The position numbers and the translations under genes are program-made. From Deltaproteobacteria bacterium (GTDB lineage Bacteria; Desulfobacterota; Desulfobacteria; Desulfobacterales; B30-G6), in assembly GCA_019313725.1 (NCBI GenBank), contig JAFDAT010000001.1, positions 1-41,520 of the forward strand: a stretch of 41,520 nt of DNA, given 5' to 3'. Positions 8,034-37,710 of the stretch are shown one piece after another. Position 1 is the first letter of the stretch; every line of letters begins with the position of its first letter. The notes beneath the pieces are model-generated. The model saw nothing but the letters and a program-made list of their open reading frames with translations, was not told the DNA's origin and did not search any database.

Positions 8034-10052
8034 ATGCAGTCAAAGTCATCCATGGTCATTTTTCAACCATCGGGGCGGCGCGGCCGGGTTCCCCTGGGAA
8101 CTTCCATCGTGGAAACATCCCGTCTTCTGGGTGTGGACATCGAAGCACCCTGTGGTGAAAAACAGGTTTGCGGCAAGTGCAAGATTCGCATCGAACAGGG
8201 AAATTTTAAAAAATTCGGTATCACTTCCGAGCCCGGGCATGCCGGCCCCTGGCAGTCCGCAGAAGAAAAACACATCTCCCCCGAAGAAAAGGAACAGGGA
8301 TATCGTCTGGGATGTGTGGCCACCGTCCAGGGCGACCTGCTCATCTACGTCCCCGAAGCTTCGCGCGCCGGCAAGCAGGTCGTCAGCAAAGCAGCCCGAC
8401 CCATAAACATCACCATCGATCCCGCAGTGAAGCAGTACTACGTTGAACTGGAACCGCCCACACTCCAAGATCCGACCGGTAATTTCGAACGGCTCTGTGC
8501 TGCCCTGGAACACCAGCACCACCTCGAATCTTTGAGCATCGACATCACCGTACTGCGCGGGCTCCAAGCCACTTTAGAAGCCGGTGAATGGAAGGTCAGC
8601 GTTGCGGTCTGGCTGGACAGGGAAATCATCCATGTCCAGCCCGGATCAGGGACGGGAATATTCGGACTCGCCATCGACGTGGGCACCACCACCGTGGCCG
8701 CCTATCTGTGCGACCTGGTTTCCGGAGAGGTAGTCGACACCTTGTCCATGATGAACCCCCAGGTCAAGTATGGTGAAGACGTGGTCTCGCGAATCTCCTT
8801 CCACATGGAAAACCCGGATGGACTGAAACGCATGAGCACAGACCTCGTGGACGGTCTGAACAACCTGGTCATGCAAGCCTCAAAACGCGACTATACCCAT
8901 TCTGCCACATCTGGAAACAGCCCATCCGCAGAGGATGAAACGTTTCGTATCCAACCTGCCGACATTCTGGATGTCAGCATTGCCGGCAATACGGCCATGC
9001 ACCACATCCTGCTGCAGCTGGATCCCGAACCGCTGGGGGTGATTCCGTTCACACCGGATGTTCATCACAGTCTGGACATCACAGCCCGGGAACTCGGTCT
9101 GAAAATCAATCCCGCGGCCCGCGTATTCATGCTACCCATTGAAGCCGGCTTTGTGGGCGGCGACAACGTCGGCGTCATCCTGGCCGAAGAACCGCATCGG
9201 CAGGATCGTATACAACTGATCATCGACATCGGCACCAATGGTGAACTCGTACTGGGCAACAAGAACCGCCTGGTATGTTCATCCTGCGCCACGGGCCCGG
9301 CCCTGGAAGGTGCCCAGATCGAATTCGGCATGCGCGCAGCCCCCGGCGCCATCGAAAGGCTGACCATCGACCCCGAAACTAAAGCAGTCGACTACAAGGT
9401 CATCGGCAGGGATGTCTGGCAAAGCTTTTCCAAACCCGAGAAGATGCAGACCAAGGGCATCTGCGGGTCGGGCATTCTGGATGCGGTGGCCCAGCTCTTT
9501 CTGGCCGGTGTCGTTGAAAAAAGCGGTGCCTTCGCCAAGCAACAGGATTCAGACCGGTTTCGAATATGCCCTGAAACCGGTATAAAAGAATTTGTCCTGG
9601 CATGGGCCCAGGAAACCAGCATCGGCAAAGATATTGTCGTGACCCAGCAGGACATCCGCCATATCCAGCTGGCCAAAGCCTCCATCTATACGGGATGCAA
9701 ACTCATGATGCGCAGATTGGGGGTTGACCGGGTCGACAGCGTCAAGGTTGCGGGCGCTTTCGGTTCCCACATCGATTGCAAACTGGCGCTTGTGATCGGC
9801 ATGTTTCCCGATTGTGCCATCGACAAGATCGTCTCCGTGGGCAATGCCGCCGGGGACGGTTGCCGGATCGCCCTCCTAAACAGGGACAAGCGCCGGGAGG
9901 CGGATTGGGTGGCCCGGCACGTGGAGTACATGGAGTTGACCCTGGAAGAGAACTTCCAGTGGCAGCTCATGGAGGCGATCCAGTTCCCCCACATGACCGA
10001 CACGTTCGAACATCTGTCGGGTGTGGTGCCCGAACACATACTTAACCAATAA
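8034..10052 (+). CDS. RACo-type reductive activator of corrinoid proteins ([2Fe-2S] ferredoxin + ASKHA/DUF4445 ATPase)
   Basis: 672-aa ORF. N-terminal plant-type [2Fe-2S] motif CGEKQVCGKCKI. ASKHA phosphate-binding blocks (LAIDVGTTT, IIDIGTNGE, GICGSGI). Confidence 0.75.
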   Translation: MQSKSSMVIFQPSGRRGRVPLGTSIVETSRLLGVDIEAPCGEKQVCGKCKIRIEQGNFKKFGITSEPGHAGPWQSAEEKHISPEEKEQGYRLGCVATVQGDLLIYVPEASRAGKQVVSKAARPINITIDPAVKQYYVELEPPTLQDPTGNFERLCAALEHQHHLESLSIDITVLRGLQATLEAGEWKVSVAVWLDREIIHVQPGSGTGIFGLAIDVGTTTVAAYLCDLVSGEVVDTLSMMNPQVKYGEDVVSRISFHMENPDGLKRMSTDLVDGLNNLVMQASKRDYTHSATSGNSPSAEDETFRIQPADILDVSIAGNTAMHHILLQLDPEPLGVIPFTPDVHHSLDITARELGLKINPAARVFMLPIEAGFVGGDNVGVILAEEPHRQDRIQLIIDIGTNGELVLGNKNRLVCSSCATGPALEGAQIEFGMRAAPGAIERLTIDPETKAVDYKVIGRDVWQSFSKPEKMQTKGICGSGILDAVAQLFLAGVVEKSGAFAKQQDSDRFRICPETGIKEFVLAWAQETSIGKDIVVTQQDIRHIQLAKASIYTGCKLMMRRLGVDRVDSVKVAGAFGSHIDCKLALVIGMFPDCAIDKIVSVGNAAGDGCRIALLNRDKRREADWVARHVEYMELTLEENFQWQLMEAIQFPHMTDTFEHLSGVVPEHILNQ

Positions 10053-15926: not shown

Positions 15927-15986
15927 ATAGTACCTCCTGAACAAACCCCATAGTTGCAACGATAGGGTAATATCGTATGGCCTGCT

Positions 15987-16466: not shown

Positions 16467-16542
16467 ATGCATTCCTCCTAAAAAACAAGGCAATCCAACT
16501 TTATAGACTGGATTGCCTTGACCGTCTTTGCAACATTGGGGG

Positions 16543-17001: not shown

Positions 17002-17016
17002 CTTGTCCTCCTCTTG

Positions 17017-17511: not shown

Positions 17512-17570
17512 AGACCTTCGCAATCGTGTATTGAAGTTCGTTTCACCCATGGTCGAGTCTTGCTGAAAAT

Positions 17571-17735
17571 TTATTCCAATGCAACAGGTTTGTGTAACCA
17601 CTTTTTTTTATTTGCCACTCTGCCGCATTTTTTACAGACATATCGTGGCACTTTTACAATATCTTTGAACGCATCGAAATTATCGCCGATGGCTGCTTCT
17701 TTCCACTTACAGAGTCGTTTTTCTTTTTTTGCCAT
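17571..17735 (-). CDS. Small (54 aa) basic protein, unknown function
   Basis: MAKKEKRLCKWKEAAIGDNFDAFKDIVKVPRYVCKKCGRVANKKKWLHKPVALE. ATG 17735 has SD AAGGTGG 5 nt upstream and lies 20 nt after the ParA-like stop. The ORF-track start at 17795 would overlap the ParA-like gene. Confidence 0.5.
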   Translation of the reverse strand: MAKKEKRLCKWKEAAIGDNFDAFKDIVKVPRYVCKKCGRVANKKKWLHKPVALE

Positions 17736-17755
17736 TATCGCCACCTTTTCGAATT

Positions 17756-18508: not shown

Positions 18509-18520
18509 GCAAACACCTTT

Positions 18521-20068
18521 TTATGGTTTTCGGGCAAAGAGTTCTCGAAATAACATCTGATTTTGCGATGATGAAAAGCGGGTAAAAGTTTGGTCGAAAG
18601 ATTCCTTTTCCAACTGCCGCTTCGTGTCCAACTTATCGATCAGGCTGCCAATGGCAACGAGTGTTTTCTTCACTTGGGAACGATTCGAAGGCAATTTTTC
18701 GGCAACGACATACAGATATTTCACCTGGACACTGAGATCGTTATAGTCCCCGAGCCTGTCTTGTAGCTTTTTCAGTTGCTCAACCAAAATGTTGATTTTT
18801 TTTAGCGGAAAAAGATTGGAAAAAAACTGGATTAAATACCGCAATTTTTTACATTGAATTCTGAGCTTATGCAGCATGTCATCATCGCCGTTTTCAAGAA
18901 TCAGATTCCCTGCTTTGATAACATTTTTATACTGCTTGTAGATTCTCTTTCGAGCCAAATCAAATACAGAACTGTCGGCGTCGGATTCCGCGCCAAGGTC
19001 CTCTTGCGGTTCATTCAGAAAAGTTTCCCAGTCCTGCATGATTTTCCTGTATTTTTTAGATTTCATGCTTCTGACGACTTTTCGGAATGACGTTGATCGT
19101 TGTTTATTTAAATAGGCAAACAAGGGGTCGATGTCATCCCGTAGAACAGGAGGCAGCATCGCCTTGTATGTGGCCTGATTCAGCAGATAAACATCCAGAT
19201 CGCGTAGCGCGCTCGATATTTTGCCAATATAAGAAAAATTTTTTGCAAACCGAGCGATCGTCTTCTTGGGAAAAATATTTTTATTCCAAACCAAAGCGGA
19301 TCTAGTCCTTCGAACGGCAACCCGGTAATCGTGAAGAAATTCCGTATCGAGGTCCTGTTCAATATTGGCCGCATTGATCTTTATGACTTGAAACAGAAAT
19401 CGCAGGATGATTTTTGTGGCCTCGTCGGAGCGCATCTCAGGATGGAGTTGTATATTTAATTTTGTAGAATAACGGTTCGGATCCTGCCCTGTCTCCCGCA
19501 TCGCCTGAAAGAATATATCTTCGTCTCCGCTTGAGGTAAGTCCTAAATCTTCAAGTTGATTATTAATTTTTCTCGAATACTTAGGATATCCTCTGACAGG
19601 CTTTACCCACAATTGCATGGCTATGGTCCTGGAATCTTTCCTGCCGGGCTGTCGAACGGTTTCAAAGAAAAGTCTTGCCACGGTTTTTTCGTCCTGGTTT
19701 AAAATCCGATACGGGGTCGCCCGGGAAACTAAATCCGCACGTTTTAAGAGTCTTCTCATTTTTATGACAGGTTCCAGGTACCTTTTAAAATCGCCTTCCG
19801 GAAAATCCCATATGAAACAGGGTGCCGGTTTGATGTCATGACTGTAAATAATTCGATCTTGGCCCAGTTTACGTAACATCAGTCTGCCTTGGGAAGAAAA
19901 CAGGACCAGTGATTTGTTAAAAAAACGCCAGTCAAATGTGTCGTAGATGGTCAGTCGCCCGGTAATCGGCGATTCTTTTTTTATGGTATGGCGTGTAGCC
20001 AATTGACGGCTGATTTGGCGTTCGTCATCATCGCCGGCGAGATCGAATTTAACAATATTTGGCATCAT
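18521..20068 (-). CDS. CHAD-domain protein with N-terminal CYTH-like region
   Basis: CHAD signature HDYRVAVRRTRSAL plus later helical repeats (LHKLRIQCKKLRY). The N-terminal YDTFDWRF.. pattern is CYTH-like, but I do not see an ExExK motif. The ATG at 20068 overlaps the ppk1 TGA (TGATG), consistent with translational coupling. Confidence 0.75.
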   Translation of the reverse strand: MMPNIVKFDLAGDDDERQISRQLATRHTIKKESPITGRLTIYDTFDWRFFNKSLVLFSSQGRLMLRKLGQDRIIYSHDIKPAPCFIWDFPEGDFKRYLEPVIKMRRLLKRADLVSRATPYRILNQDEKTVARLFFETVRQPGRKDSRTIAMQLWVKPVRGYPKYSRKINNQLEDLGLTSSGDEDIFFQAMRETGQDPNRYSTKLNIQLHPEMRSDEATKIILRFLFQVIKINAANIEQDLDTEFLHDYRVAVRRTRSALVWNKNIFPKKTIARFAKNFSYIGKISSALRDLDVYLLNQATYKAMLPPVLRDDIDPLFAYLNKQRSTSFRKVVRSMKSKKYRKIMQDWETFLNEPQEDLGAESDADSSVFDLARKRIYKQYKNVIKAGNLILENGDDDMLHKLRIQCKKLRYLIQFFSNLFPLKKINILVEQLKKLQDRLGDYNDLSVQVKYLYVVAEKLPSNRSQVKKTLVAIGSLIDKLDTKRQLEKESFDQTFTRFSSSQNQMLFRELFARKP

Positions 20069-22236
20069 CACTCTCGTTTCACGTCGTGATTATCAGGAAC
20101 ATGATTTTTCATGGTTCTCGATTGCCTGCCGATGAGATCAATCAGTGCCTCCTGGGCAGGTCTGGGCTTTTCACCTTTTTGGGGTCGTCGTCTGGAATAG
20201 CTGCCATCGGGCTGCATATCCCAGGCAGAGCAGTTGTCATTCTCGTAAATCTGCAGTTTTTGCACAAGCTCCTTTTTGAGTTTGGGATCGGTGACGGGTG
20301 TGACGGACTCCATGCGACGGTCAAGGTTTCGCCGCATCCAATCTGCCGAACCAATAAAAAATTCAGGATCACCGGCGTTTTCAAAGCAATACATTCTGCT
20401 GTGCTCTAAAAAACGACCGAGTGTACAGAATACCCGAATGTTCTCGGACAGCCCGGGAACCCCCGCGCGCAGGCAGCACAGGCCCCTTATGTTCAAACTG
20501 ATGGGCACACCCGCTTGGCCGGCGCGATAAAGCTCCTGTATAATACGCGTATCCTGAAGCTGATTCATCTTCACGTTTATACCACACGGTTTTCCTTTTC
20601 GTTTGTGCTCCGCCTCACGGCGGATCAGCTCAGTAATCCGCTCACGAAGGTTGTGGGGAGCAACCAGCAATTTATCATAATTCGGATACGGGTTCGCACT
20701 GGTCAATTCATTAAACAGCGCGGCAACGTTAGCACCTAGCTCTGGATCACAGCTTAAAATTCCCATGTCTTCGTAGATTCGCGCGGTGTCCGTGTGATAG
20801 TTCCCTGTTCCTATATGGACGTAGCGATGAATACCATCCTCTTCTTCACGGACGACAAGTGCCAATTTGACGTGAGTTTTCAACCGCTCTACGCCATAAG
20901 AAACATGTACCCCTTCCCGTTCCAAAAGTCTCCCCCATGCTATGTTGGGCGCCTCATCGAACCGGGCGGTGATCTCCACCAGCACCGCGACCTGCTTGCC
21001 TTTCCGTATCGCAAACTGAAGTGCTTGAATAATAGGGGAATCGCTGCTTGTACGATAGATGGTAAGCTTAATGGCCAGCACTTTTGGATCCATTGCCGCG
21101 CACTGAAGGAAGTTGAGTACGGAAGTATCAAAACTATGGTAGGGGTGGTGAAGCAGGATATCGGCTCGGCGGATTTCGGCAAACATCTGTTTGGGATCGT
21201 TTTGATATATTCCTGAAAGGCGGGGATGGGTTACGGGCTTATGCGGAGGATCACGCAGTTCCGGGCGATTCTTGACAGGAAACTTCATCAGATCCGCGAG
21301 CCCCATCAGACCCTTGACACTTTCGACATCTTCTGAATCGACGTCTAACTGTTCGGCTAACCAGCACATCAAGTCTTTGGGCATGTCGGCACTAACCTCC
21401 AGCCGAACCACACCGGCAAATTTTCGTGCGGTTAATTCGTGGGTCACCATACTGATGAAGAATCCGGGGGTGGAATCGGCATCAAAATCGTCAAGCTCGG
21501 TTTGTTCCCAGGGGTCATCCTTGGCTACTCGGGTAACGCGAAAAAAATAGCAGAATAGTTTTTCCGCTTTGGGAAACAACTGTTCGAGATTGGCTGCGAT
21601 CACCTGCTCCAAGGGAACAAATCCGCTGTCGTCCGCCAAAGGCACCCAACGGGGTCGGTTCGCCGGAACCTTGATCCGTACGAAACGATAGCGCTTTTTT
21701 TTCTTTTCCTTCACCTCGATGGCCAGATTCAGCCCCAAATTACTGATAAAAGGAAATGGATGCGACATATCCACGGCTAAAGGCGTCAGAATCGGTTCCA
21801 CTGATTCCGTAAAATATGCGGACATCTGTGTACGCTGGTTTTTTTTCAGTACCTTGTATTCCAGAATGGGAATTGCCTCTTTTGCCAGAGCAGGACGAAG
21901 TTTTTTTTGCACGAGGCGGGATACCAGGGCTGACTGGGCATGCAATTCAGCGCGGCACGCCCTCAGTTGCTCATCGGGAGCGAGGCCGTCACGGGATGGC
22001 TTTTGTTTTTTTTTCTGAATTTTCCGCTTGAGTCCACCCATTCGCTTCATCGCGAACTCATCGTAAAGCATACCCATAATGCCCGCAAATTTTACCCGTT
22101 CGAGCAACGGCAGCTCAGGGTCTTGTGCCAGGGAGAGCACCCGGCGTGCAAAACTGAGCCAGCTTAATTCCCGGTTGATAAATGCATCCGAGGAATCGAT
22201 TTCAATGGCTTGAGGTTTTTTTTTCATAGATGTCAT
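20068..22236 (-). CDS. ppk: Polyphosphate kinase 1
   Basis: 722-aa ORF with FINRELSWLSFARRVLSLAQDP..PLLERVKF at the N-terminus, LLHHPYHSFD, and RLKTHVKLALVVR (phosphohistidine region). Confidence 0.9.
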   Translation of the reverse strand: MTSMKKKPQAIEIDSSDAFINRELSWLSFARRVLSLAQDPELPLLERVKFAGIMGMLYDEFAMKRMGGLKRKIQKKKQKPSRDGLAPDEQLRACRAELHAQSALVSRLVQKKLRPALAKEAIPILEYKVLKKNQRTQMSAYFTESVEPILTPLAVDMSHPFPFISNLGLNLAIEVKEKKKKRYRFVRIKVPANRPRWVPLADDSGFVPLEQVIAANLEQLFPKAEKLFCYFFRVTRVAKDDPWEQTELDDFDADSTPGFFISMVTHELTARKFAGVVRLEVSADMPKDLMCWLAEQLDVDSEDVESVKGLMGLADLMKFPVKNRPELRDPPHKPVTHPRLSGIYQNDPKQMFAEIRRADILLHHPYHSFDTSVLNFLQCAAMDPKVLAIKLTIYRTSSDSPIIQALQFAIRKGKQVAVLVEITARFDEAPNIAWGRLLEREGVHVSYGVERLKTHVKLALVVREEEDGIHRYVHIGTGNYHTDTARIYEDMGILSCDPELGANVAALFNELTSANPYPNYDKLLVAPHNLRERITELIRREAEHKRKGKPCGINVKMNQLQDTRIIQELYRAGQAGVPISLNIRGLCCLRAGVPGLSENIRVFCTLGRFLEHSRMYCFENAGDPEFFIGSADWMRRNLDRRMESVTPVTDPKLKKELVQKLQIYENDNCSAWDMQPDGSYSRRRPQKGEKPRPAQEALIDLIGRQSRTMKNHVPDNHDVKRE

Positions 22237-25183: not shown

Positions 25184-26587
25184 GTGGCAGAATGGTACAC
25201 AAAAAAGCTTGCCGAGTATGCGGTCAACTCGCAGTTCGAAGACTATCCTGCCGAGGTCGTCGAGCGGGCAAAGGTTCTCATTCTCGACCTGATCGGCTGT
25301 ATGTTCGGGGGGTGTCAGACAGGACTGGGAAAAGCCATCGTCAAACCCTTGACATCCATGGGGGGCCAGCCGGAAGCCACCATTGTCGGCGGTGGGGCCA
25401 AGGTGCCGACTATCCAGGCTGCATTTGCCAACGGAACGACAGCCAATGCCCTCGATTATGATGACACCCTGCTGGGCATCGGTCATCCCGGTGCATCGGT
25501 CATTCCGGCGGCGTTGGCAATCGGTGAGTGGAAACACGCCTCAGGCAAAGATGTCCTCAACGCCATTCTGGTGGGTTATGATGTCGGGGATCGAATTGGT
25601 TTGGCTATTCAGCCCAGTTATGAGCGGCTTCAGAACGTCTGGGGTGTCGGCACCTGGCAGACCCTGGGAGCGGCAGCAGCAGCGGCCAGGGTTCTCAATA
25701 TGGATTTAGACAAGACCTTGAACACCTACGGGGTAGCCGGGGCGACGGCACCGCTGCCGAATACCCAGAAATGGGGCTGGGATCTGTCCGAACGCCCGAT
25801 CCATTGGGTCAAGGAACCCACAGGATGGCCTTGCTGGACCGGTACGACGGCAGCCGTTCTTGCAGAAAACGGCTTCATCGGCAACCGCTTTATCCTGGAT
25901 GGTAAAAATGGTTTCTGGATCATGGCCGGATCCGATCAGTGCGATTATGAAAAAATGACCAAGGGCCTGGGAAACGAATATGAAGTAATCGACAATATTG
26001 CCATCAAACCCTATTCATCCTGCCGCTGGCAGCATGCCACACTGGATTGTGTCCAGGAATTGAAGCACGAACACCATCTTTCGCCGGAGTCCATAGAGGC
26101 TGTTGCCGTACACTCTTTCGCATGGGTAAAGACGCATGAAGTTTACAACCCGGCGGACATGGTGGATGCACAATTCTCGATACCCTATACCGTATCCATG
26201 GTGCTTTTAGGTGAACACCCGGGACCTGCCTGGTATACACCGGAAAACATGCAAAGCGATATTGTTGCCCGGATCATGAAAAAAGTGACCGTGGAGACCG
26301 ATTCCGGCATCGATCGGGCCTATTTTGATGAAGACAAGATTTCGGCTCGCGTGAAGATCTCTACGAACAGCGGGGATGCGTTCGAAAAATTCGTCGGAAT
26401 TCCATACGGTGACCCCCGACACCCTATCAGCCAGAGCGATATTGAAGATAAATTTAGAAACCAGGCGTTGTATGTGCTGGGTTCTGAGGATGTTGATAGG
26501 GTCATGGAAGAGATATATGCGTTCGAAAAACTGGAAGATATTTCCGATCTCATGTCGCTTCTCATGGGAAATCCATTGGTAAAATAG
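25184..26587 (+). CDS. MmgE/PrpD-family protein (2-methylcitrate dehydratase-like fold; substrate unknown)
   Basis: 467-aa ORF with a GTG start and SD AGGGAGG. MmgE/PrpD-like N-terminus (YAVNSQFEDYPAEVVERAKVLILDLIGCMFGG...ANGTTANALDYDDT). TAG stop 16 nt before the mttB ATG. Confidence 0.75.
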   Translation: MAEWYTKKLAEYAVNSQFEDYPAEVVERAKVLILDLIGCMFGGCQTGLGKAIVKPLTSMGGQPEATIVGGGAKVPTIQAAFANGTTANALDYDDTLLGIGHPGASVIPAALAIGEWKHASGKDVLNAILVGYDVGDRIGLAIQPSYERLQNVWGVGTWQTLGAAAAAARVLNMDLDKTLNTYGVAGATAPLPNTQKWGWDLSERPIHWVKEPTGWPCWTGTTAAVLAENGFIGNRFILDGKNGFWIMAGSDQCDYEKMTKGLGNEYEVIDNIAIKPYSSCRWQHATLDCVQELKHEHHLSPESIEAVAVHSFAWVKTHEVYNPADMVDAQFSIPYTVSMVLLGEHPGPAWYTPENMQSDIVARIMKKVTVETDSGIDRAYFDEDKISARVKISTNSGDAFEKFVGIPYGDPRHPISQSDIEDKFRNQALYVLGSEDVDRVMEEIYAFEKLEDISDLMSLLMGNPLVK

Positions 26588-26603
26588 ATAGGAGGTAAAA
26601 TTC

Positions 26604-28091
26604 ATGAAACGCAGATTGAAAGCTGGTAAAAACCGCAATTCAGGCTTCAGCCTGAACGTCATGACCGATGATGAGGTTCATGAAGTTCACATGGGCACCC
26701 TGGAAGTGTTGAAGGATGTGGGTATCTTCGTGGAAAGCACGGAAGCCCTAGAGCGTTTTGATGCTGGGGGGTGCGAGGTCGATAAAAAGAACAAGGTGGT
26801 CAAATTCCCCCACTGGGTGGTCGAGGATGCCATTAACGCCGCCCCCGGCGCATATCATGCCTGCGGGCGCAGACCCGAAGACGATGTGCTTCTGGAGGAC
26901 AATCGGGTGACCTTTACCAATTTCGGCGAAGGCATCATGTTCGTGGACCCCTACACCGGGGAACACAGGGAGACAACCAAAGATGATATCGTTAAGGCGT
27001 CCAGAATTATCGATTCCCTGGAAAATATCGAAACCTACGAGCGGGCCATGTGCTCCCACGACAAACCGCCGGAATCCCAGGCCCTGCACAATGCCGAAGC
27101 ATCGCTGACCAACACAACCAAACACCACTGGTTGTGCCCGGTGGACCGTTTTCAGGCCAAGAAAATAACGGAGATGTGCGCCGCCATCGTCGGGGGCAGA
27201 GACGTACTCAAAAAAAGACCGTTGCTCTCTTTTACCACCTGTCCCATCAGCCCCTTGAAACTCCCGGCCCACCATTGCGAAATCGTTATGGAGGCGGCTG
27301 AGAGCTACATGGGGCTCAATGTGGTCGGCATGGCCATGTCGGCGGGCTCCGGCCCGGTACACCTGGCCGGCACGGTGATCATCCAGAATTGCGAGGTTTT
27401 GTCGAGCCTGGTCCTGGCGCAGTTGACCCGCAAGGGAGCACAATTCATCTACGGCAGCTCCACGTGTCCTTTGGATCTGCGCATGGCCACGGCCAGTGTG
27501 GGATCACCCGAGACCGGCATGATCAGCGCGGCGGTAGCACGGCTGGCCCGTTACTACAGCCTGCCCTGCTTCGTCGCCGGTGGGTAGGGCGACAGCAAGC
27601 TGACCGATGCCCAGGCGGGTTTCGAAAAAACCATGACCGGCATGCTTCCCGCATTGGCAGGCGCCAATGTCATCTACGGATTGGGAATGCTGGAAATGGG
27701 CATCACCTTCGACCTGGCACAGCTGGTGTGGGATCACGAAATCGCTGAGATGATTCTGTACGCCATGAAAGGGGTTCCGGTAAACGATACCACCCTTGCC
27801 GTCGATGTCATCAAGGAGATGGGCATCGGCAAGGATTATCTGTCGCATCCCACCACCTTCGAGCACATGCGCTCTCAGTCCCAGGCCCGGCTGATCGACC
27901 GCAGAATGCGCGAAGACTGGGAGGCTGCCGGCAGCACGGATGCCTACAAGCGCTCCCACGACAAGATGATCGACATTCTGGAAACCTATGAACCGCCCAA
28001 GCTTCCGGACGATGTCTTGAAGAACGTCCGTTCCATCGTAGTTGAGGCTGAGAAGGAGTTGGGTGTATATAGCGAAGATAATGAGGAATAA
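26604..28091 (+). CDS. mttB: Trimethylamine:corrinoid methyltransferase (MttB) with one in-frame TAG at codon 328 (candidate pyrrolysine)
   Basis: ORFs 26604..27587 and 27633..28091 are in the same frame and are separated only by TAG 27585-27587. Homology to the two MttB paralogs in this window runs straight across the TAG. The joined length is 495 codons. Strong SD AGGAGGT before ATG 26604. Confidence 0.8.
27585..27587 (+). other. In-frame UAG codon, candidate pyrrolysine recoding site
   Basis: GCC GGT GGG TAG GGC GAC AGC AAG reads A G G * G D S K. The TAG aligns with Ala (AGATDAK) and Cys (GGCTDAK) in the paralogs at 33385..34821 and 36161..37597. Confidence 0.7.
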
Positions 28092-28104
28092 GCAGATAAT
28101 GACA

Positions 28105-28133
28105 TTGACATTTTCACAGGGGCATTGTAAAAA
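28105..28133 (+). promoter_or_regulatory. Putative sigma70-type promoter for the ABC transporter operon
   Basis: TTGACA (28105-28110), 17-nt spacer, TAAAAA (28128-28133). Lies ~130 nt upstream of ATG 28266. Confidence 0.35.
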
Positions 28134-28265
28134 TTTTACTTCATCCCCAGAAACAATTATTCACGTCCTGAGGAATTAACTGCTTCATCAGGAAATGGTG
28201 AATAGTTCGGGTAAAAACCAGTTACATCATCAACTTACATACTCACAAACAGCAAGGAGGAAATC

Positions 28266-30425
28266 ATGCGGGCAAAAAAATTAAACCTATGTGTAGCCAT
28301 TGCAGTTTCACTGATCTTTCTTTTTTCCACGGGCGCACTCGCGGCATCAACGCTTAAACTCGGCGTCATGGGTCCCTTCACCGGTCCATCGGCAAAAACC
28401 GGCGCTGAATTCAAGGGGTCTGTCAAAATGGCCATGGAAAACATCGATTACAAAATCGGTGATTACAAGATAGAACTCGTCTGGATTGACTCCCAGTCAG
28501 ATCCCGCAAAGGCTACAAGCGCCTATGCAGAGGCGGTGGAATCAAAAGGTGTCCAGGTTGCCATGCTGAACTGGCACAGTTCGGTCGCAGCGGCGGTAAT
28601 GGATATAGCGGCCCAGTACAAGGTGCAGCATGTGTTCGGAATGGGCGCGGCTGAGATCGTCAACGAAAAGTACAAATCAGACCCTGAAAAGTACAGTTAC
28701 TGGGCTGCCAAGGGATGGCCAATTCCCGGCGACCTTATCCCGGGTTATGTGGAGAGTGTCAACGCAGCCGTTGCCAGCGGTAAATTCAAACCTGGAAAAA
28801 AAGTAGTCGCCATTTACGGCGAAGAGACCGACTGGGGCCGAAGCGTGGGAGCAGCATTCAAAAAGGGTTTCGAGGCTACCGGATGGAAGATTCTTTCCGA
28901 AGACTACTTCCCCTTCACCCAGACCGATCACTATTCTCTTCTGAGCAAATACAAGAAAGGCGGGGCTGCCGTTCTGGCCGGAACATCCACATCCGCACCT
29001 TCCATCTCGGGTTTTATTAAACAGGCCGATGAGATTGGACTTAAAGCCGTAATCGTTGCCGACGGTCTGGGCTGGAATGCCGACTGGTACAAGATGACCG
29101 GCAATGCTTCAAACCACGTGTTGGACATGATCCCCCGGCTTACCACAAAGGCCGCCCAGGATTGGGCCAAAGCGATAAAGGCTAAATTCGGATACAACCC
29201 GAGTCCTTCGGCATCCGGCCTGTCATACGATTACGCCAATTTCTTCATCAAACTTGCCAAAAGAGCCCTTGAAAAACATGGGAAACTCGACAAGGATTCC
29301 ATCCACGAGGTCGTCATTAGCGAACTCAATACCGGCAAACTGACCTACGGCAAGGCGGACGGCGCCCTTATCATGAATGAGTACAGATATTCAGCGAAAT
29401 CCATACCCGATCCCGTCATTGCCGCGGACGGTTACTTCTTTCCCGTTCTTCAATACATGAACGGAGACAGCAACATCATCTATCCTGATGACTGGAAAAC
29501 AGCCAATTTTTCGGCTAAAGAAAGACGGTATCATTTAGTAAAAACGGTGAGGTCGACCGTAGTCGGCCTCACAGTCAACCATCCCGAAGGAATAAATAAC
29601 CAGCGGTTAAGCGCACGTGTCAACGCCTGGGAACAGATGCGATTATCTTTTCCTATCGGAAAACACAACACACCAAATCACCAAACGGACAGGTGGTTCC
29701 AAATGACTGTAGTGTTAGAAACCAACGAAGTGACCAAACGGTTCGGGGGACTGGTGGCGGTCAACGCTGTCTCCATGCGGGTCAGACAGGGCGAGATCGT
29801 CGGACTGATCGGGCCCAATGGGGCTGGGAAGACAACCCTTCTCAACGCCATAGCAGGTCTCAATCCACCAACATCCGGAACAGTCCGGATGTTCGATGAG
29901 GATACAACCGGCCTGCCGCCGGAAAAAATGTGCCGGAGGGGACTTTCAAGGACCTTCCAGATCCCGCGACCCTTTCCGAAAATGTCGGTTCTTGAAAATA
30001 TCATGACAGCGGCCACCTTCGGCAATAAAAAAAAGCTGCCCGACATTACCGGACACTGCAGGGAACTGATGGAATTTGTGGAATTCCCTCTGGCGGAAAC
30101 CGTCATTTCGGAAAACCTCAACACGGTACAACTGAAACGGCTCGACCTTGCAAGAGCCCTGGCAAGTTCTCCGAAACTACTGTTTCTCGATGAACTTGCG
30201 GCTGGCTTAACTGAGGGTGAGCTGAACGATATCATCAAAATAATAAAAAAAATTCATGACAGGGACATCTCCATTTTGATGGTCGAGCACATTATGCACC
30301 TTATCATGAGTGTATGCGATCGGCTCGTCTGCATCCAGTTTGGAATAAAAATCGCCGAGGGGCCCACCCAGGAGGTGGCAAACGACCCCAAGGTGTCCGA
30401 GGCCTATCTAGGCTCGAGCCATTGA
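28266..30425 (+). CDS. Uninterrupted 719-codon frame: LivJ/K-type periplasmic binding protein module (aa 1-~420, signal peptide) reading through a ~60-aa linker into a LivG-type ATPase
   Basis: Signal peptide MRAKKLNLCVAIAVSLIFLFSTGALA. LivJ-like block LKLGVMGPFTGPSAKTGAEF...IELVWIDSQSDPAKA. There is no in-frame stop before 30423. Both other frames stop at 29516-29518 and 29536-29538, just before a hairpin at 29547-29572, so a probable 1-nt indel has removed the real stop. Confidence 0.6.
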   Translation: MRAKKLNLCVAIAVSLIFLFSTGALAASTLKLGVMGPFTGPSAKTGAEFKGSVKMAMENIDYKIGDYKIELVWIDSQSDPAKATSAYAEAVESKGVQVAMLNWHSSVAAAVMDIAAQYKVQHVFGMGAAEIVNEKYKSDPEKYSYWAAKGWPIPGDLIPGYVESVNAAVASGKFKPGKKVVAIYGEETDWGRSVGAAFKKGFEATGWKILSEDYFPFTQTDHYSLLSKYKKGGAAVLAGTSTSAPSISGFIKQADEIGLKAVIVADGLGWNADWYKMTGNASNHVLDMIPRLTTKAAQDWAKAIKAKFGYNPSPSASGLSYDYANFFIKLAKRALEKHGKLDKDSIHEVVISELNTGKLTYGKADGALIMNEYRYSAKSIPDPVIAADGYFFPVLQYMNGDSNIIYPDDWKTANFSAKERRYHLVKTVRSTVVGLTVNHPEGINNQRLSARVNAWEQMRLSFPIGKHNTPNHQTDRWFQMTVVLETNEVTKRFGGLVAVNAVSMRVRQGEIVGLIGPNGAGKTTLLNAIAGLNPPTSGTVRMFDEDTTGLPPEKMCRRGLSRTFQIPRPFPKMSVLENIMTAATFGNKKKLPDITGHCRELMEFVEFPLAETVISENLNTVQLKRLDLARALASSPKLLFLDELAAGLTEGELNDIIKIIKKIHDRDISILMVEHIMHLIMSVCDRLVCIQFGIKIAEGPTQEVANDPKVSEAYLGSSH
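29703..30425 (+). CDS. Branched-chain-amino-acid-type (HAAT) ABC transporter ATP-binding protein, LivG-like
   Basis: The internal ATG at 29703 has its own SD AGGTGG (29691-29696). Walker A GPNGAGKTT, signature/Walker B region LLFLDELAAGL. Confidence 0.8.
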   Translation: MTVVLETNEVTKRFGGLVAVNAVSMRVRQGEIVGLIGPNGAGKTTLLNAIAGLNPPTSGTVRMFDEDTTGLPPEKMCRRGLSRTFQIPRPFPKMSVLENIMTAATFGNKKKLPDITGHCRELMEFVEFPLAETVISENLNTVQLKRLDLARALASSPKLLFLDELAAGLTEGELNDIIKIIKKIHDRDISILMVEHIMHLIMSVCDRLVCIQFGIKIAEGPTQEVANDPKVSEAYLGSSH

Positions 30426-30485
30426 AATGTATGATAGGTGCAGGGAGTATACTCCCTTATCATCCTTTATCATCCGGAGGATAGA

Positions 30486-31193
30486 ATGCTGCTGGAAGTA
30501 AAAAATATCAACGCCGGCTACGGATTTCTGCAGATCTTAAGAGATGTATCGTTCAATATCGACCAGGGCGAATACGCCTGTGTAATAGGGCCGAACGGTG
30601 CCGGAAAAAGCACAACAATGAAAACCATAGCAGGACTTTTGAGCCCCATGAGCGGCGAGATAATTTTCAACGGTAAAAACATTGCCGGGCTACCGGGCAA
30701 CCAGGTCGCCCGGCTAGGGATAGGCTACATTTCAGAAGATATGAATCTCTTTACCAACATGACCGTTCAAGAAAACCTTTACATGGGCGCGTATGTGATC
30801 AAAGAGAAGGCTCTTAAGAACGACAGGCTCGATTTCGTATACAACCTCTTTACCCGGCTGAAAAATCGCAAAGACCAGTTAGCCGGAACAATGAGCGGCG
30901 GAGAGCGCAAGATGCTGGCCATCGGCAGGGGTCTTATGGCAAACCCGAAACTCCTTCTGGTAGACGAACCGTCATTCGGACTGGCACCACAGCTGATGGA
31001 AAACGTTTTTGACAATCTCGACATTTTAAAAGAGGCTGGTGTTACCATTCTCCTGGTGGAGCAGAATGTGACCAAAGCGCTGCAGGTTACCACGAGGGGT
31101 TATGTGATGGAAAACGGGAAAATCTTCATGAAGGGGCTGAGTTCGGATCTTGCAGATGACCCCCATGTAAGAAAAGTTTTTCTAGGGGTTTAA
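30486..31193 (+). CDS. HAAT ABC transporter ATP-binding protein, LivF-like
   Basis: ATG 30486 is preceded by GGAGG. Walker A GPNGAGKST, signature MSGGERKM, Walker B LLLVDEPS. The ORF-track start at 30438 lacks an RBS. Confidence 0.8.
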   Translation: MLLEVKNINAGYGFLQILRDVSFNIDQGEYACVIGPNGAGKSTTMKTIAGLLSPMSGEIIFNGKNIAGLPGNQVARLGIGYISEDMNLFTNMTVQENLYMGAYVIKEKALKNDRLDFVYNLFTRLKNRKDQLAGTMSGGERKMLAIGRGLMANPKLLLVDEPSFGLAPQLMENVFDNLDILKEAGVTILLVEQNVTKALQVTTRGYVMENGKIFMKGLSSDLADDPHVRKVFLGV

Positions 31194-31218
31194 GAAAAAT
31201 GGCGGAGGGCTTTTTGTT

Positions 31219-32247
31219 ATGACAGAGTCGAAAACCGGGACCGTTATTGTATGGATGAAATCAGCCGGAGGAATAACGGTCACCCTATCAATCTTAATTG
31301 CGATCATCGCCGGCATAGACAGCGGACCGTACATCATCGTCAACACGATCGTAACCGGTGGCATGCTTGCCCTGGTAGCCTTGGGGCTGGCGTTGATATT
31401 CGGTGTTATGAATATTCCCATGTTCGCCCATGGCGAATTTTTTATGATCGGATCATTGACGGCATACTATATATTTACACCTTTGGCTGAATATTTAAAC
31501 ACCAGTCCCAACAGTCTCCTGGCGGCAACCGCACCGCTTATTGCTATTTTGGGTGCAATGATTGTGGGGGCCGTGGCAGGACTTTTGTGTGAACTGCTTA
31601 TCTTTTCCCAGCTTCGCAAAAGGAGCCGTGAAAACTGGGTAATGAATTCATTTCTGCTCACCGTGGGTCTATCGGTTGTTCTGATCAACGCCCACCAGCT
31701 CCTTTTCGGAACGGAGTTCAAGGGGATTGTCCGGTACTGGGGGGGCAGACCCACGGAAATAATGGGGGCATTTGTATCCCGGGACAGAATACTGGTCTTT
31801 GTGCTTGCCATGGTTGTTGTCGGTGTTTTCTGGCTATTTATGAAATACACCAGTACCGGGCGGGCAATTCGAGCAGTATCTCAGGATCAAACAGGTGCGC
31901 TGATGGTAGGAATAAACATAAACGGCATCCTCCTGCTCACCATGGCTTTGGGATGCGCACTCTCCGCCATTGCCGGAGCAGGCCTTCTCTTTCTTTACCC
32001 CTCTTACCCCGCCGTGGGGCTGGAGCCGCTATATCTGGCCTGGTTTGTGGTCATCCTGGTGGGGCTCGGGAACACGGCATTTGCCCTTGTGGGAGGATTC
32101 ATCGTTGCCCTTATAAAAGCGCTGACTGTTGAATATATCGGCGCCGGATGGGATTTCGTGATTCCATCGCTCTTGATTACCGTTGTCCTGGTCTTCAAAC
32201 CGAGCGGACTTTTCGGTTCTGAAGTCAGAGGTGTTCTTGATTTATAG
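31219..32247 (+). CDS. HAAT ABC transporter permease, LivH-like
   Basis: 342-aa polytopic ORF with the LivH-type block IFGVMNIPMFAHGEFFMIGS. TAG stop. Confidence 0.75.
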   Translation: MTESKTGTVIVWMKSAGGITVTLSILIAIIAGIDSGPYIIVNTIVTGGMLALVALGLALIFGVMNIPMFAHGEFFMIGSLTAYYIFTPLAEYLNTSPNSLLAATAPLIAILGAMIVGAVAGLLCELLIFSQLRKRSRENWVMNSFLLTVGLSVVLINAHQLLFGTEFKGIVRYWGGRPTEIMGAFVSRDRILVFVLAMVVVGVFWLFMKYTSTGRAIRAVSQDQTGALMVGININGILLLTMALGCALSAIAGAGLLFLYPSYPAVGLEPLYLAWFVVILVGLGNTAFALVGGFIVALIKALTVEYIGAGWDFVIPSLLITVVLVFKPSGLFGSEVRGVLDL

Positions 32248-32267
32248 GTCTCTCTAAGGATGGTTAA

Positions 32268-33299
32268 ATGAAAACAAACGACTCTAATATGGAATCAGGA
32301 TTGGCAGACAGGATCATGGACAGGCTTTGTCTCACACCGGCAGCGGTTGCCGGAATTATTTTGCTGTTTGTCATTCCTTTTATCCCGCCCTTCAACCAGC
32401 AATACATGATCCGGTGGCTGGTCGCCGCTGCTCTCATAGGCGCCAATGCAATTGCATTTGACTTTACCATCGGCTTTATCAACATTGTAAATTTCGGATA
32501 CTACGCCTTTCTCGGCTTCGGTGGTTACACTTCGGCTATCCTTGCGGTAAACCTGGGACTGTCGCCATGGATCGGCATGATTATCGGTGCCCTCTTTTCA
32601 GGCGTCCTTGGATTGCTGACCGGATTGCTGACCCTGCGCCTCAGAGGGATATTCGCCGCCTGTATGACGTGGTTTCTGGGCCTGGCCATGATGGGGTTGA
32701 TCACAAAAATGGTGTGGCTCACACGCGGCCCACTGGGACTGCGGTGCCCCCAGTTATTCGAAACGTCATCCAATCTCCCGTACTACTACCTGATTTTGTC
32801 CCTGTTAATTGTCATCTATATCTCTACCAAGTGGGTGACAAGATCCAACATGGGTCTGGCTTTCAAGGCTATCGGGCAGAACATGGAGGCCGCCAGAACA
32901 TCGGGAATCAATCCTGTTTTCTACAGAATTGTCAACTTTACACTCTCCTGCACCATCGCGGGGTTGCTGGGAGGATTCTATGCCCACTACTACGGGGTTT
33001 TGACCCCTGAACTGCTGCACACTACCAAAACGGTAGAAGTTCTGGCCGTGGCCTATATCGGTGGACGGGGGAGCCTCTGGGGAGGTGCTTTTATTGCCTT
33101 TCCGTTCATTATTACAATGGAGCTCATACGTTCTTCTCTGTCTGAACTACCAGGACTCAACCTGATCATCTACGGTCTCATGCTGATGTTGGTCATGATT
33201 TACTATCCAGGTGGTTTTGCTGAGTTTTTCAACACCTATCTTGCAAAACCAAAAAACCGGTTCCTGCGTTACTTTTTAAGCGGCATCAAGGATTCTTGA
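32268..33299 (+). CDS. HAAT ABC transporter permease, LivM-like
   Basis: 343-aa polytopic ORF with the LivM-type block LLTLRLRGIFAACMTWFLG. Confidence 0.75.
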   Translation: MKTNDSNMESGLADRIMDRLCLTPAAVAGIILLFVIPFIPPFNQQYMIRWLVAAALIGANAIAFDFTIGFINIVNFGYYAFLGFGGYTSAILAVNLGLSPWIGMIIGALFSGVLGLLTGLLTLRLRGIFAACMTWFLGLAMMGLITKMVWLTRGPLGLRCPQLFETSSNLPYYYLILSLLIVIYISTKWVTRSNMGLAFKAIGQNMEAARTSGINPVFYRIVNFTLSCTIAGLLGGFYAHYYGVLTPELLHTTKTVEVLAVAYIGGRGSLWGGAFIAFPFIITMELIRSSLSELPGLNLIIYGLMLMLVMIYYPGGFAEFFNTYLAKPKNRFLRYFLSGIKDS

Positions 33300-33384
33300 T
33301 ACCCGCAAGCATAACGGACAATTTAAAAAAATATTCCCGGGACATCGGGATCTATTATCAATGATTCAGCCAAAGGAGTACAAT

Positions 33385-34821
33385 ATGGGTATTACCACCG
33401 ATGAACTTTACTTCAAGCCGAAACTCCGGATACTCAGCGATGATCAACTCAAAAAGATCGAAATGGCCGTTTTTGAAGTGCTCGAACGCACCGGCGTTAA
33501 ACTCACCCATCCCAAGGCACGGGATATCCTCAGCGGGGCCGGTGCAAAAGTGGAGGGTGATCGGATTCGGATACCGGGATGGATGGTGGAAGAGGCTATC
33601 CGCAAGACGCCTTCGCGCCTGGTTCTGGGAAACCGTAAAGGCGAACGTGCCGTGGTTCTGGAAGGCGACAAGAGCTGGTTCGGCCCTAGTCTTGACTGCA
33701 TCGATTACCTGGATCCCGTAACCAACGAACGCATGCGCTTTACCAGCGACCATTGCCGTATTTCGGCCACAGTGGCCGATTACTGCGACAATTTTGACTG
33801 GGTAATGACCATCGGCATGGCTGATGACCAACCTGCCGACATTGCCGACCGGGTCGTTGCCCGTCAGACCATGACCTATTGTGAAAAGCCGCTGGTCGTC
33901 TGCTGCAAGGACACCAACAGCATGCGCGACATCTATGAAATGGCGCTTACCATCTGCGGCGGCAAGGAAAAGTTTGACCAGGCCCCCATCGTGGCCCACT
34001 ATTCTGAACCTATTTCTCCGCTCCTCTACTACGATCCGGCTGTGGACAAGATGATCTATTCCGTGGAAAACGACATCCCCCTGATCAATTTTCCGTGTGT
34101 TCAGTCCAGCGGCACGGCACCAGCCACCCTGGCAGGCGCCATCATTCAGGGGGCGGCCGAATCCATCAGCGGTGCCGTCCTGGCCCAGGCCATCAAGCCT
34201 GGAGCACCCTTTGTTTTCGGTGCTTTTGTGACCGTCATGGACATGAAAACCACCGTGTTTTCCTACGGCGCCAGCGAAATGAGCATCATGGTCGGGGCCC
34301 TGGCCCAATTGGCCCAGCATTGGAACATACCATTCTATGGTACTGCCGGTGCTACGGATGCCAAGTTTCCAGATGCCCAGGCAGCTGCCGAGGCCACCCA
34401 GCAGATCATGACCGCCGCCACCGTCGGATCAGGTCTGGTTCACGACTGCAGCAGCTGGATCGATCACGGCTCGGTGGTTTCGCCGGGTTTTATGGTGCTG
34501 GTCAATGAAATTCTCGGAAACGTCAAGCAGTTTATGAATGGCATGCCGGTAACCGACGACAGCATGGCTCTGGATATCATCGATTCCGTCGGGCCGGGAG
34601 GCAATTACCTGATGGAGCAGCACACCCTGGACAATTTCCGCAATGTTCGCTACTCCACCCTGTTTGAGCGCCAGATCCGGCAGGAATGGGAAGATGCCGG
34701 CTCTCAAACTTTTGAAGACCGGTTAAGGGAGCACACCGAAAAAGCCATGGCCCACACACCGGCACCATTGCCGGATGATGTGGTAAAAGAGCTGGATACC
34801 ATGCAGAAGCACTGGAAATAA
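33385..34821 (+). CDS. Non-pyrrolysine MttB-superfamily methyltransferase, paralog A (probable quaternary-amine:corrinoid methyltransferase)
   Basis: 478 aa from ATG 33385 (SD AAGGAG). Collinear, without gaps by eye, with the 478-aa paralog at 36161..37597. Ala occupies the column of the mttB TAG. Confidence 0.75.
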   Translation: MGITTDELYFKPKLRILSDDQLKKIEMAVFEVLERTGVKLTHPKARDILSGAGAKVEGDRIRIPGWMVEEAIRKTPSRLVLGNRKGERAVVLEGDKSWFGPSLDCIDYLDPVTNERMRFTSDHCRISATVADYCDNFDWVMTIGMADDQPADIADRVVARQTMTYCEKPLVVCCKDTNSMRDIYEMALTICGGKEKFDQAPIVAHYSEPISPLLYYDPAVDKMIYSVENDIPLINFPCVQSSGTAPATLAGAIIQGAAESISGAVLAQAIKPGAPFVFGAFVTVMDMKTTVFSYGASEMSIMVGALAQLAQHWNIPFYGTAGATDAKFPDAQAAAEATQQIMTAATVGSGLVHDCSSWIDHGSVVSPGFMVLVNEILGNVKQFMNGMPVTDDSMALDIIDSVGPGGNYLMEQHTLDNFRNVRYSTLFERQIRQEWEDAGSQTFEDRLREHTEKAMAHTPAPLPDDVVKELDTMQKHWK

Positions 34822-34822
34822 T

Positions 34823-34856
34823 AAAAAAGGCCGGGCCACAGGCCCGGCCTTTTTTA
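34823..34856 (+). terminator. Rho-independent terminator (bidirectional-looking)
   Basis: aaaaaaGGCCGGGCCacaGGCCCGGCCtttttt immediately after the paralog A stop. Confidence 0.8.
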
Positions 34857-34875
34857 TTATGGAGGGAGTGGTCGG

Positions 34876-36060: not shown

Positions 36061-36160
36061 TACTTAGACCAAAAACACACAAAGGACACGAAGATTTTTT
36101 CTTAACGTCTTTGTAGTTGTTTTTTTTCATTGACATGCCCCAATAAGGGAGGACAACACC

Positions 36161-37597
36161 ATGGATATCCAGCTGCCCGAAATAAATTTCAAGCCCCGGC
36201 TGAATGTAATTAATGCGGAACAGATCAAACAGATCCATACAGCAAGCCTGGAGGTCCTCGAACGGATCGGCGTTAAGATGACGCATCCACGGGCTGTGGA
36301 ACTGTTGGAGAGTGCCGGTGCCAATGTGGATGGAGACAGGGTCCGTATTCCTTCATGGATGGTTGAAGATGCCATCCGCAAGGCCCCTTCCCGGGTGGTG
36401 CTGGGAAAACGGAATGGTGAGCGGTCGGTGTTTATAGAGGCGGGTAAAACCTGGTTTGGGCCCAGCCTGGATTGTATTGACTATCTGGACCCGATGACCG
36501 ATGAACGCAAACGCTTTACCAGCGAACACTGCCGGGTCAGCGCGACCATCGCCGATGCCATGCCCAACTTCGACTGGTCCATGATCATCGGCATGGCCGA
36601 CGATCAACCGCCTGACATCGCCGATCGGGTGATTGTTCGTCAGGCCCTGACCTACTGCGAAAAACCGCTGGTTTTTTGCTGCAAAGATACCAATAGCGAG
36701 CGTGATATCTACGAAATGGCTCTGTTGATCTGCGGCGGCAAGGAGAACTTTGAAAAGGCACCGACCATCGTCCAGTACTCCGAACCGATTTCACCTCTGG
36801 AATATTATGACCCGGCCGTGGACAAGATGCTCTTTTCGGTCGAACATGGTATTCCCCTGATAAATTTTCCCGCGCCCCAGGCCTGTGGCTCGGCTCCGGC
36901 AACGCTTGCCGGAACCATCGTGCAGGGCAGTGCGGAATCTTTAAGCGGACTGGTACTGGCTCAGGCTGCCCGGCCGGGTGCTGCTTTTATCTACGGGGCC
37001 TTCACCACCATAATGGACATGAAAACATCCGTTTTTTCATACGGGGCGTCTGAAATGAGTCTGATGGTCGCTGCCATGGCCCAGATGGCGGAACATTACA
37101 ATCTGCCTTTTTTCGGCACCGGCGGTTGTACGGATGCCAAATTCTGTGACCCTCAGGCCGCCGTCGAAGCGACCTTTCAATGTTTTAGCTCCGCCGCCGT
37201 TGGAACCGGTCTGATACATGACTGCAGCAGCTGGATGGATCACGGCTCTTTAGTGTCGCCGGCCTTCATGGTGCTGGTCAACGAAATTTTGCACAACGTA
37301 AAACAATATATGAACGGTATACCGGTTAGCGCAGAGACACTGGCTATAGATGTCATCGAGCGTGTCGGGCCGGGTGGACACTATCTGCAGGATGAGCATA
37401 CCTTGGCGAATTTTAACAAGGTGCGTTATTCCGAGCTGTTTGAACGCACGATCCGCCAGGAATGGGAAGCCGACGGTTCCAAAAGCTTTGAAGACCGGCT
37501 GCGGCAAATGACGGTAAAGGCCATGGCTCACGAACCGGCGGCCTTGCCGGATGATATCGTTAAAGAAATTGATACGATGCAGCAGCACTGGAAATAA
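36161..37597 (+). CDS. Non-pyrrolysine MttB-superfamily methyltransferase, paralog B
   Basis: 478-aa ORF with SD AGGGAGG. Roughly two-thirds to three-quarters identical to paralog A by eye. Cys occupies the column of the mttB TAG. Confidence 0.75.
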   Translation: MDIQLPEINFKPRLNVINAEQIKQIHTASLEVLERIGVKMTHPRAVELLESAGANVDGDRVRIPSWMVEDAIRKAPSRVVLGKRNGERSVFIEAGKTWFGPSLDCIDYLDPMTDERKRFTSEHCRVSATIADAMPNFDWSMIIGMADDQPPDIADRVIVRQALTYCEKPLVFCCKDTNSERDIYEMALLICGGKENFEKAPTIVQYSEPISPLEYYDPAVDKMLFSVEHGIPLINFPAPQACGSAPATLAGTIVQGSAESLSGLVLAQAARPGAAFIYGAFTTIMDMKTSVFSYGASEMSLMVAAMAQMAEHYNLPFFGTGGCTDAKFCDPQAAVEATFQCFSSAAVGTGLIHDCSSWMDHGSLVSPAFMVLVNEILHNVKQYMNGIPVSAETLAIDVIERVGPGGHYLQDEHTLANFNKVRYSELFERTIRQEWEADGSKSFEDRLRQMTVKAMAHEPAALPDDIVKEIDTMQQHWK

Positions 37598-37680: not shown

Positions 37681-37710
37681 TTTTCAAATGCCAAAAGGCC
37701 AATATAAATT

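Follow-up and report, generated by a model that had tools for sequence, protein, structure and literature searches.

A probably pyrrolysine-dependent trimethylamine methyltransferase gene, split at an in-frame TAG by gene callers, in an uncultured Desulfobacterales-type bacterium

In marine Desulfobacterales, a trimethylamine (TMA) methyltransferase with an amber codon at position 327 of 485 was described by Kivenson et al. (2021; PMC8318568), whose genomes carry nearby paralogues lacking pyrrolysine (Pyl) together with a pyl cassette, and for which metatranscriptomic expression was reported (PMC8318568). Pyl proteins had been found earlier in a deltaproteobacterial worm symbiont (PMC1976440), and the mis-annotation that arises when gene calls are split at TAG has already been recognised for both gut and marine bacteria (PMC7593587, PMC8318568). 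A Pyl codon in a Desulfobacterales mttB is an already known phenomenon, one that will not surprise a specialist. Here, we analyse an mttB frame at positions 26604-28091 of a 41,520-nucleotide stretch of DNA (contig JAFDAT010000001.1 of assembly GCA_019313725.1, a deltaproteobacterium; hereafter the window), which is interrupted by a single in-frame TAG and is followed past that codon by an RNA hairpin and a stretch of synonymous constraint; these last two are the only parts of the locus that may be new.

On comparative evidence, the frame is very probably one intact, functional Pyl-dependent mttB of an uncultured Desulfobacterales-type bacterium. It resembles the gene of the marine Desulfobacterales designated 'Deltaproteobacteria-bbl' (PMC8318568) in coming from the same order-level lineage, in the nearly identical position of its amber codon (328 of 495 here, 327 of 485 there), in the presence of non-Pyl MttB paralogues nearby and in belonging to a lineage with a bacterial pyl cassette. 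The two loci differ in that the corrinoid protein of 'Deltaproteobacteria-bbl' is encoded at most 10 genes from mttB, with Pyl synthesis and methylamine genes nearby, whereas the window holds neither mttC nor pyl genes in its 41.5 kb. The MttB of Methanosarcina barkeri (PDB 7XCL/7XCM/7XCN; PMC9842639) can be aligned to the joined window protein over its full length, including the Pyl column and Gly110, Met249, Tyr364 and Gly372, but it is an archaeal enzyme whose methyl group is passed to coenzyme M for methanogenesis, and its Thr111 corresponds to Glu in the window protein. The non-Pyl MttB superfamily, which comprises MtgB of Desulfitobacterium hafniense (PDB 2QNE/9YCE), MtpB and others, shares the TIM-barrel family PF06253 and includes two further window genes, paralogues A and C; its members are distinguished by a sense codon at the Pyl column, by quaternary-amine substrates and by scores below the cutoff of the Pyl-MttB equivalog TIGR02369. 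Such a sense codon is present in paralogues A and C and is lacking from the TAG-containing gene.

Translation of 26604-28091 on the forward strand gives 495 sense codons and a terminal TAA, the sole internal stop being the TAG at codon 328 (27585-27587). Open reading frames (ORFs) 26604..27587 (327 aa) and 27633..28091 (152 aa) lie in one common frame, and the Pfam MTTB profile runs on from one to the other, the first part matching positions 30-337 and the second 341-499. The original prediction, made from the letters of the window, that one mttB frame is split by one TAG is thus borne out by the translation, the shared frame and the contiguous Pfam matches. It had also warned that gene callers would mis-annotate the gene, and public calls do give separate MTTB fragments of 327 and 152 aa. 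A look-up of the 327-aa fragment retrieved five separately assembled metagenomes of the Joint Genome Institute (JGI) in which the gene calls consist of a 327-aa MTTB fragment and, behind it, another fragment, which on complete contigs has 152 aa; in every assembly examined, the public gene calls split mttB in two.

When the PDB was searched by sequence, the best match to the joined protein was M. barkeri MttB (7XCL/7XCM; 386 bits over residues 3-485), whereas MtgB, a glycine betaine enzyme without Pyl, reached only 238 bits. Query residue 328, encoded by the TAG, is aligned to X334 (Pyl) of 7xcl_A and to K334 of the 7xcm_A variant, so that the alignment to M. barkeri MttB that had been proposed as a check on the prediction returned an exact match to Pyl334 (PDB 7XCL). 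Against the NCBIfam equivalog TIGR02369, for which the cutoff is 525 bits, the joined protein scores 684.3 bits and passes; combined with its full-length match to PF06253, this places it within the family. Paralogues A and C fail the same cutoff with 354 and 371 bits, respectively. The catalytic residues of MttB, Tyr364 among them, were named in the structural study of Li et al. 2023 (PMC9842639), and the Pyl-activating Gly110 and Tyr364 are reported there to be 100% conserved in Pyl-MttB (PMC9842639). In the PDB alignment, Gly110, Met249, Pyl334, Tyr364 and Gly372 of M. barkeri are conserved in the window protein as G108, M243, TAG328, Y358 and G366, respectively. Tyr is the majority residue at the codon equivalent to Tyr364 in 59 orthologues (TAC in 39, TAT in 20), and the non-Pyl paralogues found near mttB in relatives have Phe at this column. 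The paralogue alignments quoted in the original prediction proved correct at the Pyl column, paralogue C reading LPFFGTGG-C(TGT)-TDAKF and paralogue A reading IPFYGTAG-A-TDAKFPDAQA. Of the sizes given with them, the 495 codons of the joined product stand, but the 478 aa assigned to paralogue A is the length reported by public gene callers, and translation from its first ATG yields 486 aa.

The TAG is kept in the five independently assembled JGI metagenomes, whose contigs are 99.7-99.9% identical to the window, and the frame is intact in all five of these population variants. More distant relatives were collected by a scan of one genome per species, which returned 68 loci, all from Desulfobacterales or Thermodesulfobacteriota, with MttB identities of 61-91% (individual loci are cited below by L numbers); the cultured Desulfocicer vacuolatum DSM 3385 and Desulforhopalus singaporensis DSM 12130 are among them. 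The Pyl column is occupied by TAG in all 77 TAG-type copies from about 60 Desulfobacterales/Thermodesulfobacteriota genomes, a set that takes in all the orthologues and also a second group of paralogues; Ala or Gly codons are found there in the adjacent non-Pyl paralogues of the same relatives. Past the TAG, nearly all orthologues have 160-171 further codons of open frame. Nei-Gojobori ratios of nonsynonymous to synonymous substitution rates (dN/dS) against the eight closest relatives (L002-L009) are 0.036-0.055 before the TAG and 0.052-0.095 after it, and by the criterion of purifying selection the downstream frame appears to be translated. The internal ATG at 27633 (codon 344) is replaced by ATC, ATT or ATA in 55 of 59 orthologues and is therefore not a conserved start. 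One Pyl-type copy (L034:15114-15743) was observed with TAT (Tyr) at the Pyl column; it is 93% identical to an intact TAG copy at the same locus, and was rejected as a natural Pyl-free variant, being a 5'-truncated remnant of 210 codons, a decayed duplicate.

In the mechanism that we propose, the UAG at codon 328 would be decoded by a Pyl-tRNA(CUA); PylBCD would synthesise the pyrrolysine, a split PylSn/PylSc synthetase would load it onto this tRNA, and the genes for all of these would lie elsewhere in the genome. Decoding would compete with release factor 1 at codon 328, such that the full enzyme of 495 residues would be produced only when the pyl genes are expressed and a truncated product of 327 residues would result otherwise, UAG serving as an ordinary stop for other genes. 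Pyl328, together with Tyr358 and Gly108, would activate trimethylamine, and the methyl group would pass to a corrinoid protein and from there to tetrahydrofolate, both partner proteins being encoded outside the window. The Pyl machinery of the window organism, actual read-through and the substrate are what we infer here. In Methanosarcina acetivorans, UAG is read both as a stop and as Pyl, and pyl expression follows demand (PMC12626013); the suggestion in the original prediction that read-through must be partial or conditional agrees with this literature. That suggestion had drawn on five other coding sequences said to end in TAG, of which four have family support (ends at 12110, 26587, 32247 and 41147). 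The fifth, on the minus strand at 16543-17001, overlaps the Usp gene (15987-16940) in another frame, has no family match and is probably not a gene. Stop usage among the 28 window genes is 12 TGA, 12 TAA and 4 TAG; read-through of the four TAG-terminated genes would add extensions of 7-32 codons only, and a scan of the 41.5-kb window found no further TAG-interrupted genes. The locus would add a further population to the Desulfobacterales that may be competitors of methanogens for trimethylamine. Because public gene calls split the enzyme in two, the TMA-consuming capacity of sulfate-reducer-type bacteria is under-counted unless TAG is treated as Pyl.

Dedicated Pyl machinery was found in several relatives of the window organism. 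At L040 (MttB 69% identical), pylB, pylC, pylD, pylT and pylSn adjoin three TAG-type mttB genes and a TAG-interrupted mtbB, and L043 (67%) carries pylT, pylB and pylSn. L015 (78%) combines mttB(TAG) with genes for a corrinoid protein, EtfBA and a methyl-tetrahydrofolate:corrinoid methyltransferase, as well as pylSn, pylD, pylC and pylB. The L012 metagenome-assembled genome (MAG; GCA_964418755.1), with an MttB 80% identical to that of the window, has pylT, pylSc, a thioesterase gene, pylB, pylC, pylD and pylSn on CAYQNS010000001.1 (L076), while its mttB lies on CAYQNS010000051.1, a different contig from this complete cassette. The layout pylT, pylSc, 4HBT thioesterase, pylB, pylC, pylD, pylSn and a pterin-binding methyltransferase, with HU and NrdD farther away, is kept in this Desulfobacterales clade. 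Of these, the 4HBT thioesterase gene, placed between pylSc and pylB, does not belong to the standard pyl set. In many relatives, TAG-interrupted mtbB genes and extra TAG-type mttB paralogues adjoin the mttB orthologues; at L040 the interrupted dimethylamine methyltransferase (mtbB) occupies 5371-6417 on the minus strand. A search for PylC homologues returned 2,576 clusters, of which the long-contig candidates connected only to the L012 MAG; three JGI PylC clusters that were looked up came from a sample series other than that of the window (3300035388-90).

Several observations weigh against a functional Pyl-dependent enzyme. Neither a tRNA nor a pyl gene occurs within the 41.5-kb window, and phmmer --max detected no cognate corrinoid protein or second methyltransferase in it; in the closest relatives, mttC lies directly downstream of mttB, MttC-like genes following mttB in L002, L010 and L015. 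Thr111 of M. barkeri MttB is replaced by Glu (E109) in the window protein, and one metagenome scan with PylC of the L012 clade yielded none from the window's sample series, Ga03668xx. The residual doubt lies mainly in the possible loss of pyl genes from the window population, in which case the TAG would now truncate MttB and the gene would be a decaying relic. The absence of pyl genes, mttC and a second methyltransferase from 41.5 kb would fit such a loss, as would a local gene context unlike that of the relatives. Decay is, however, hard to reconcile with a downstream dN/dS of 0.05-0.10 against the closest relatives, with a frame free of frameshifts and extra stops, and with its intactness in five population variants. 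Since the cassette and mttB of the L012 MAG also lie on separate contigs, nothing can be concluded from a 41-kb window that lacks pyl genes. We consider a relic improbable, and an intact Pyl-dependent gene remains the preferred reading.

The remaining explanations deny that the TAG encodes Pyl at all. If the gene were truly split, its 327-aa and 152-aa ORFs would be translated separately and assemble as a Pyl-free enzyme, as might be supposed from the two ORFs that are called, each of which matches MTTB. The ATG at 27633 is, however, without a Shine-Dalgarno sequence and gives way to ATC, ATT or ATA in most orthologues, and the 15 codons between TAG and ATG are conserved as protein and align to the active-site segment of M. 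barkeri MttB; this arrangement is very unlikely. Insertion of Gln, Tyr or Lys at the UAG by a near-cognate or suppressor tRNA would be in keeping with the fact that pylT was not found for the window organism, but the gene is assigned to the Pyl-MttB equivalog, the Tyr and Gly that activate Pyl are retained, relatives possess dedicated Pyl machinery, and the only copy found with a Tyr codon (L034) is a truncated remnant, for which reasons we attach very little weight to it. That the TAG stems from faulty sequencing or assembly, or from a nonsense mutation that arose recently in a single clone, can be raised as a general possibility only; the original prediction had itself listed error and pseudogene as outcomes that would overturn it, and an identical TAG in five separate assemblies and in 77 homologous copies of other species, along with the low downstream dN/dS, leaves an error with hardly any credibility. 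Because the assemblies, the conservation of the TAG, the open frame, the selection and the unconserved ATG act together, sequencing error, recent nonsense mutation and a split gene are taken as excluded. All of the checks suggested with the original prediction that were carried out spoke for it.

PYLIS elements (RF01982 in mtmB and RF02510 in mttB) lie directly 3' of the Pyl UAG, and the window likewise matches RF02510 (PYLIS_3) from the UAG onwards (Table 1). In 42 orthologues, the consensus pairs of RF02510 form in 70.4% of cells against a shuffle mean of 71.8%, and covariation is no better than in shuffles. Since neither pairs nor covariation exceed the shuffles, the match reflects coding-sequence conservation only, and the PYLIS_3 structure was rejected as a functional element. 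This agrees with Have et al. 2013, in which no common structure was reported for mttB (PMC3639795); in M. acetivorans, no cis-element is essential for Pyl decoding (PMC12626013). The hairpin found here differs from PYLIS elements, whose RF02510 pairs are unsupported in these bacteria, in being smaller, different in structure and located farther downstream (+66 to +85). It was recovered by RNAalifold as a 7-bp hairpin in alignment columns 67-73 / 80-86, in which 98.3% of cells are paired, a value attained in 0 of 500 shuffles, compared with 26-56% in slid controls. When consensus folds were compared in 96 windows along the gene, that of the hairpin was the most stable (-4.76 kcal/mol; mean -0.34, sd 0.93). 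The partners in pair 69/84 are the third codon positions of Ala350 and Asn355, both synonymous; a neighbour-joining tree implies at least 3-4 exchanges of G-C and A-U at this pair, and one sequence shows a G-U intermediate. When synonymous variation was scanned along the whole 495-codon gene, codons 323-358 contained all of the 14 lowest 9-codon windows, with a minimum normalised entropy of 0.437 over the hairpin as against a gene mean of 0.785.

The neighbouring non-Pyl paralogues also encode the ALAGAN peptide, with varied codons that mostly allow 2-5 of the 7 pairs, and the divergent second TAG-type group retains the hairpin motif. Across the 1.35 Mb of DNA collected here, the motif TTG[GT]CAGGN[GT][GC]CAA occurs 79 times, in 78 cases exactly 69 nt after an in-frame TAG and in the other in a decayed copy; the motif is specific to TAG-type mttB. 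As read from the Rfam consensus, archaeal mttB allows 3 of the 7 pairs and is unable to fold into the +66 hairpin, and the other loci retrieved contained no further mttB of greater divergence to which the hairpin test could be extended. The hairpin is small, its stability in the window's own sequence is unremarkable (z = -1.2, not significant alone), and its position is too far downstream to contact a ribosome with the A site on the UAG. An extended 70-nt stem around it, in which 87% of cells pair, is not claimed: most of its columns are protein-constrained, and 18 of 50 sequences fail to form its sole covarying pair. We tentatively raise, as a conjecture in which doubt outweighs confidence, that Pyl-type mttB of Desulfobacterota carries a lineage-specific cis-acting RNA element past the UAG that affects the outcome at this codon. 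Such an element may have as its core the covarying hairpin of 7-8 bp at +66 to +85, whose CAGG loop is conserved and around which synonymous variation is suppressed over about 100 nt. It may, for example, make read-through more efficient, or stabilise or shield the mRNA during termination at the UAG. If functional, the hairpin and the constraint would bear on whether Pyl decoding uses any cis-element; if the conjecture is true, bacteria would possess an equivalent of PYLIS, itself a debated element, and would do so in a gene that had so far yielded no common structure.

Table 1. Coordinates of the mttB locus and associated features (window positions unless a locus is named)
Feature	Coordinates	Strand	Basis
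Shine-Dalgarno AGGAGG	26590..26595	+	8 nt upstream of mttB ATG at 26604, read from sequence
Full-length mttB, predicted Pyl-type trimethylamine:corrinoid methyltransferase	26604..28091	+	Pfam MTTB on both halves, TIGR02369, 7XCL match
Stretch of least synonymous variation, codons 323-358	27570..27677	+	Scan of all 495 codons
Probable pyrrolysine codon, in-frame TAG, codon 328	27585..27587	+	Aligned to X334 (Pyl) of 7xcl_A; TAG in 77/77 TAG-type homologues and 5 assemblies
Rfam RF02510 (PYLIS_3) match, starts at UAG	27585..27684	+	76.8 bits, gathering score 38
Spurious 152-aa ORF, reported as separate MTTB fragment	27633..28091	+	JGI gene calls; start not conserved
RNA hairpin GCAUUGG-CAGGCG-CCAAUGU	27651..27670	+	Starts 66 nt 3' of the U of UAG
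Tyr358 codon, equivalent of catalytic Tyr364 of M. barkeri MttB	27675..27677	+	Alignment; role from PMC9842639
Branched-chain-amino-acid-type ATP-binding cassette (ABC) transporter: binding protein, two ATPases, two permeases	28266..33299	+	Pfam; directly downstream of mttB
Non-Pyl MttB-superfamily paralogue A; Ala at Pyl column, His at Tyr364 column	33361..34821	+	Pfam MTTB
Non-Pyl MttB-superfamily paralogue C; Cys at Pyl column, His at Tyr364 column	36161..37597	+	Pfam MTTB
RACo/AcsV-type corrinoid reductive activator	8034..10052	+	Pfam RACo_C_ter, Raco_middle, RACo_linker; ~16.5 kb upstream of mttB
Conserved pyl cassette layout	L076:5342-11325; also L077, L078, L080-L082, L103, L105		

In the window, mttB is placed between a PrpD-like gene and the ABC transporter, an arrangement that L002 and L009 partly share, with homologous transporter genes upstream of mttB. 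The RACo-type activator scores 447 bits against NCBIfam AcsV, below the cutoff of 800, and may serve MttB-family enzymes. Within the transporter, the 719-aa ORF at 28266-30425 appears as a fusion of binding protein and ABC ATPase; it is a stop-loss variant, with GAA at 29520-29522 where the near-identical L070 has TAA, and its counterparts in L070 are separate genes of 418 and 240 aa. The region 25184-37597 as a whole comprises a PrpD/MmgE-family gene, the Pyl-type mttB, the transporter, the two non-Pyl MttB paralogues and an enolase-superfamily gene with a weak match to cis-3-hydroxy-L-proline dehydratase, and may serve as an island for the catabolism of quaternary amines or betaines. Elsewhere in the window, phosphate and polyphosphate genes are dense at 12326-22236 (PPK2, a Na/Pi cotransporter with PhoU domains, Usp, a histidine phosphatase, a ParA-like ATPase, a CHAD-domain protein and PPK1), and a repeat of about 98 nt with 96% identity, seen as a secondary BLAST match of L001, occurs in two intergenic regions (37700-37797 and 41423-41520).

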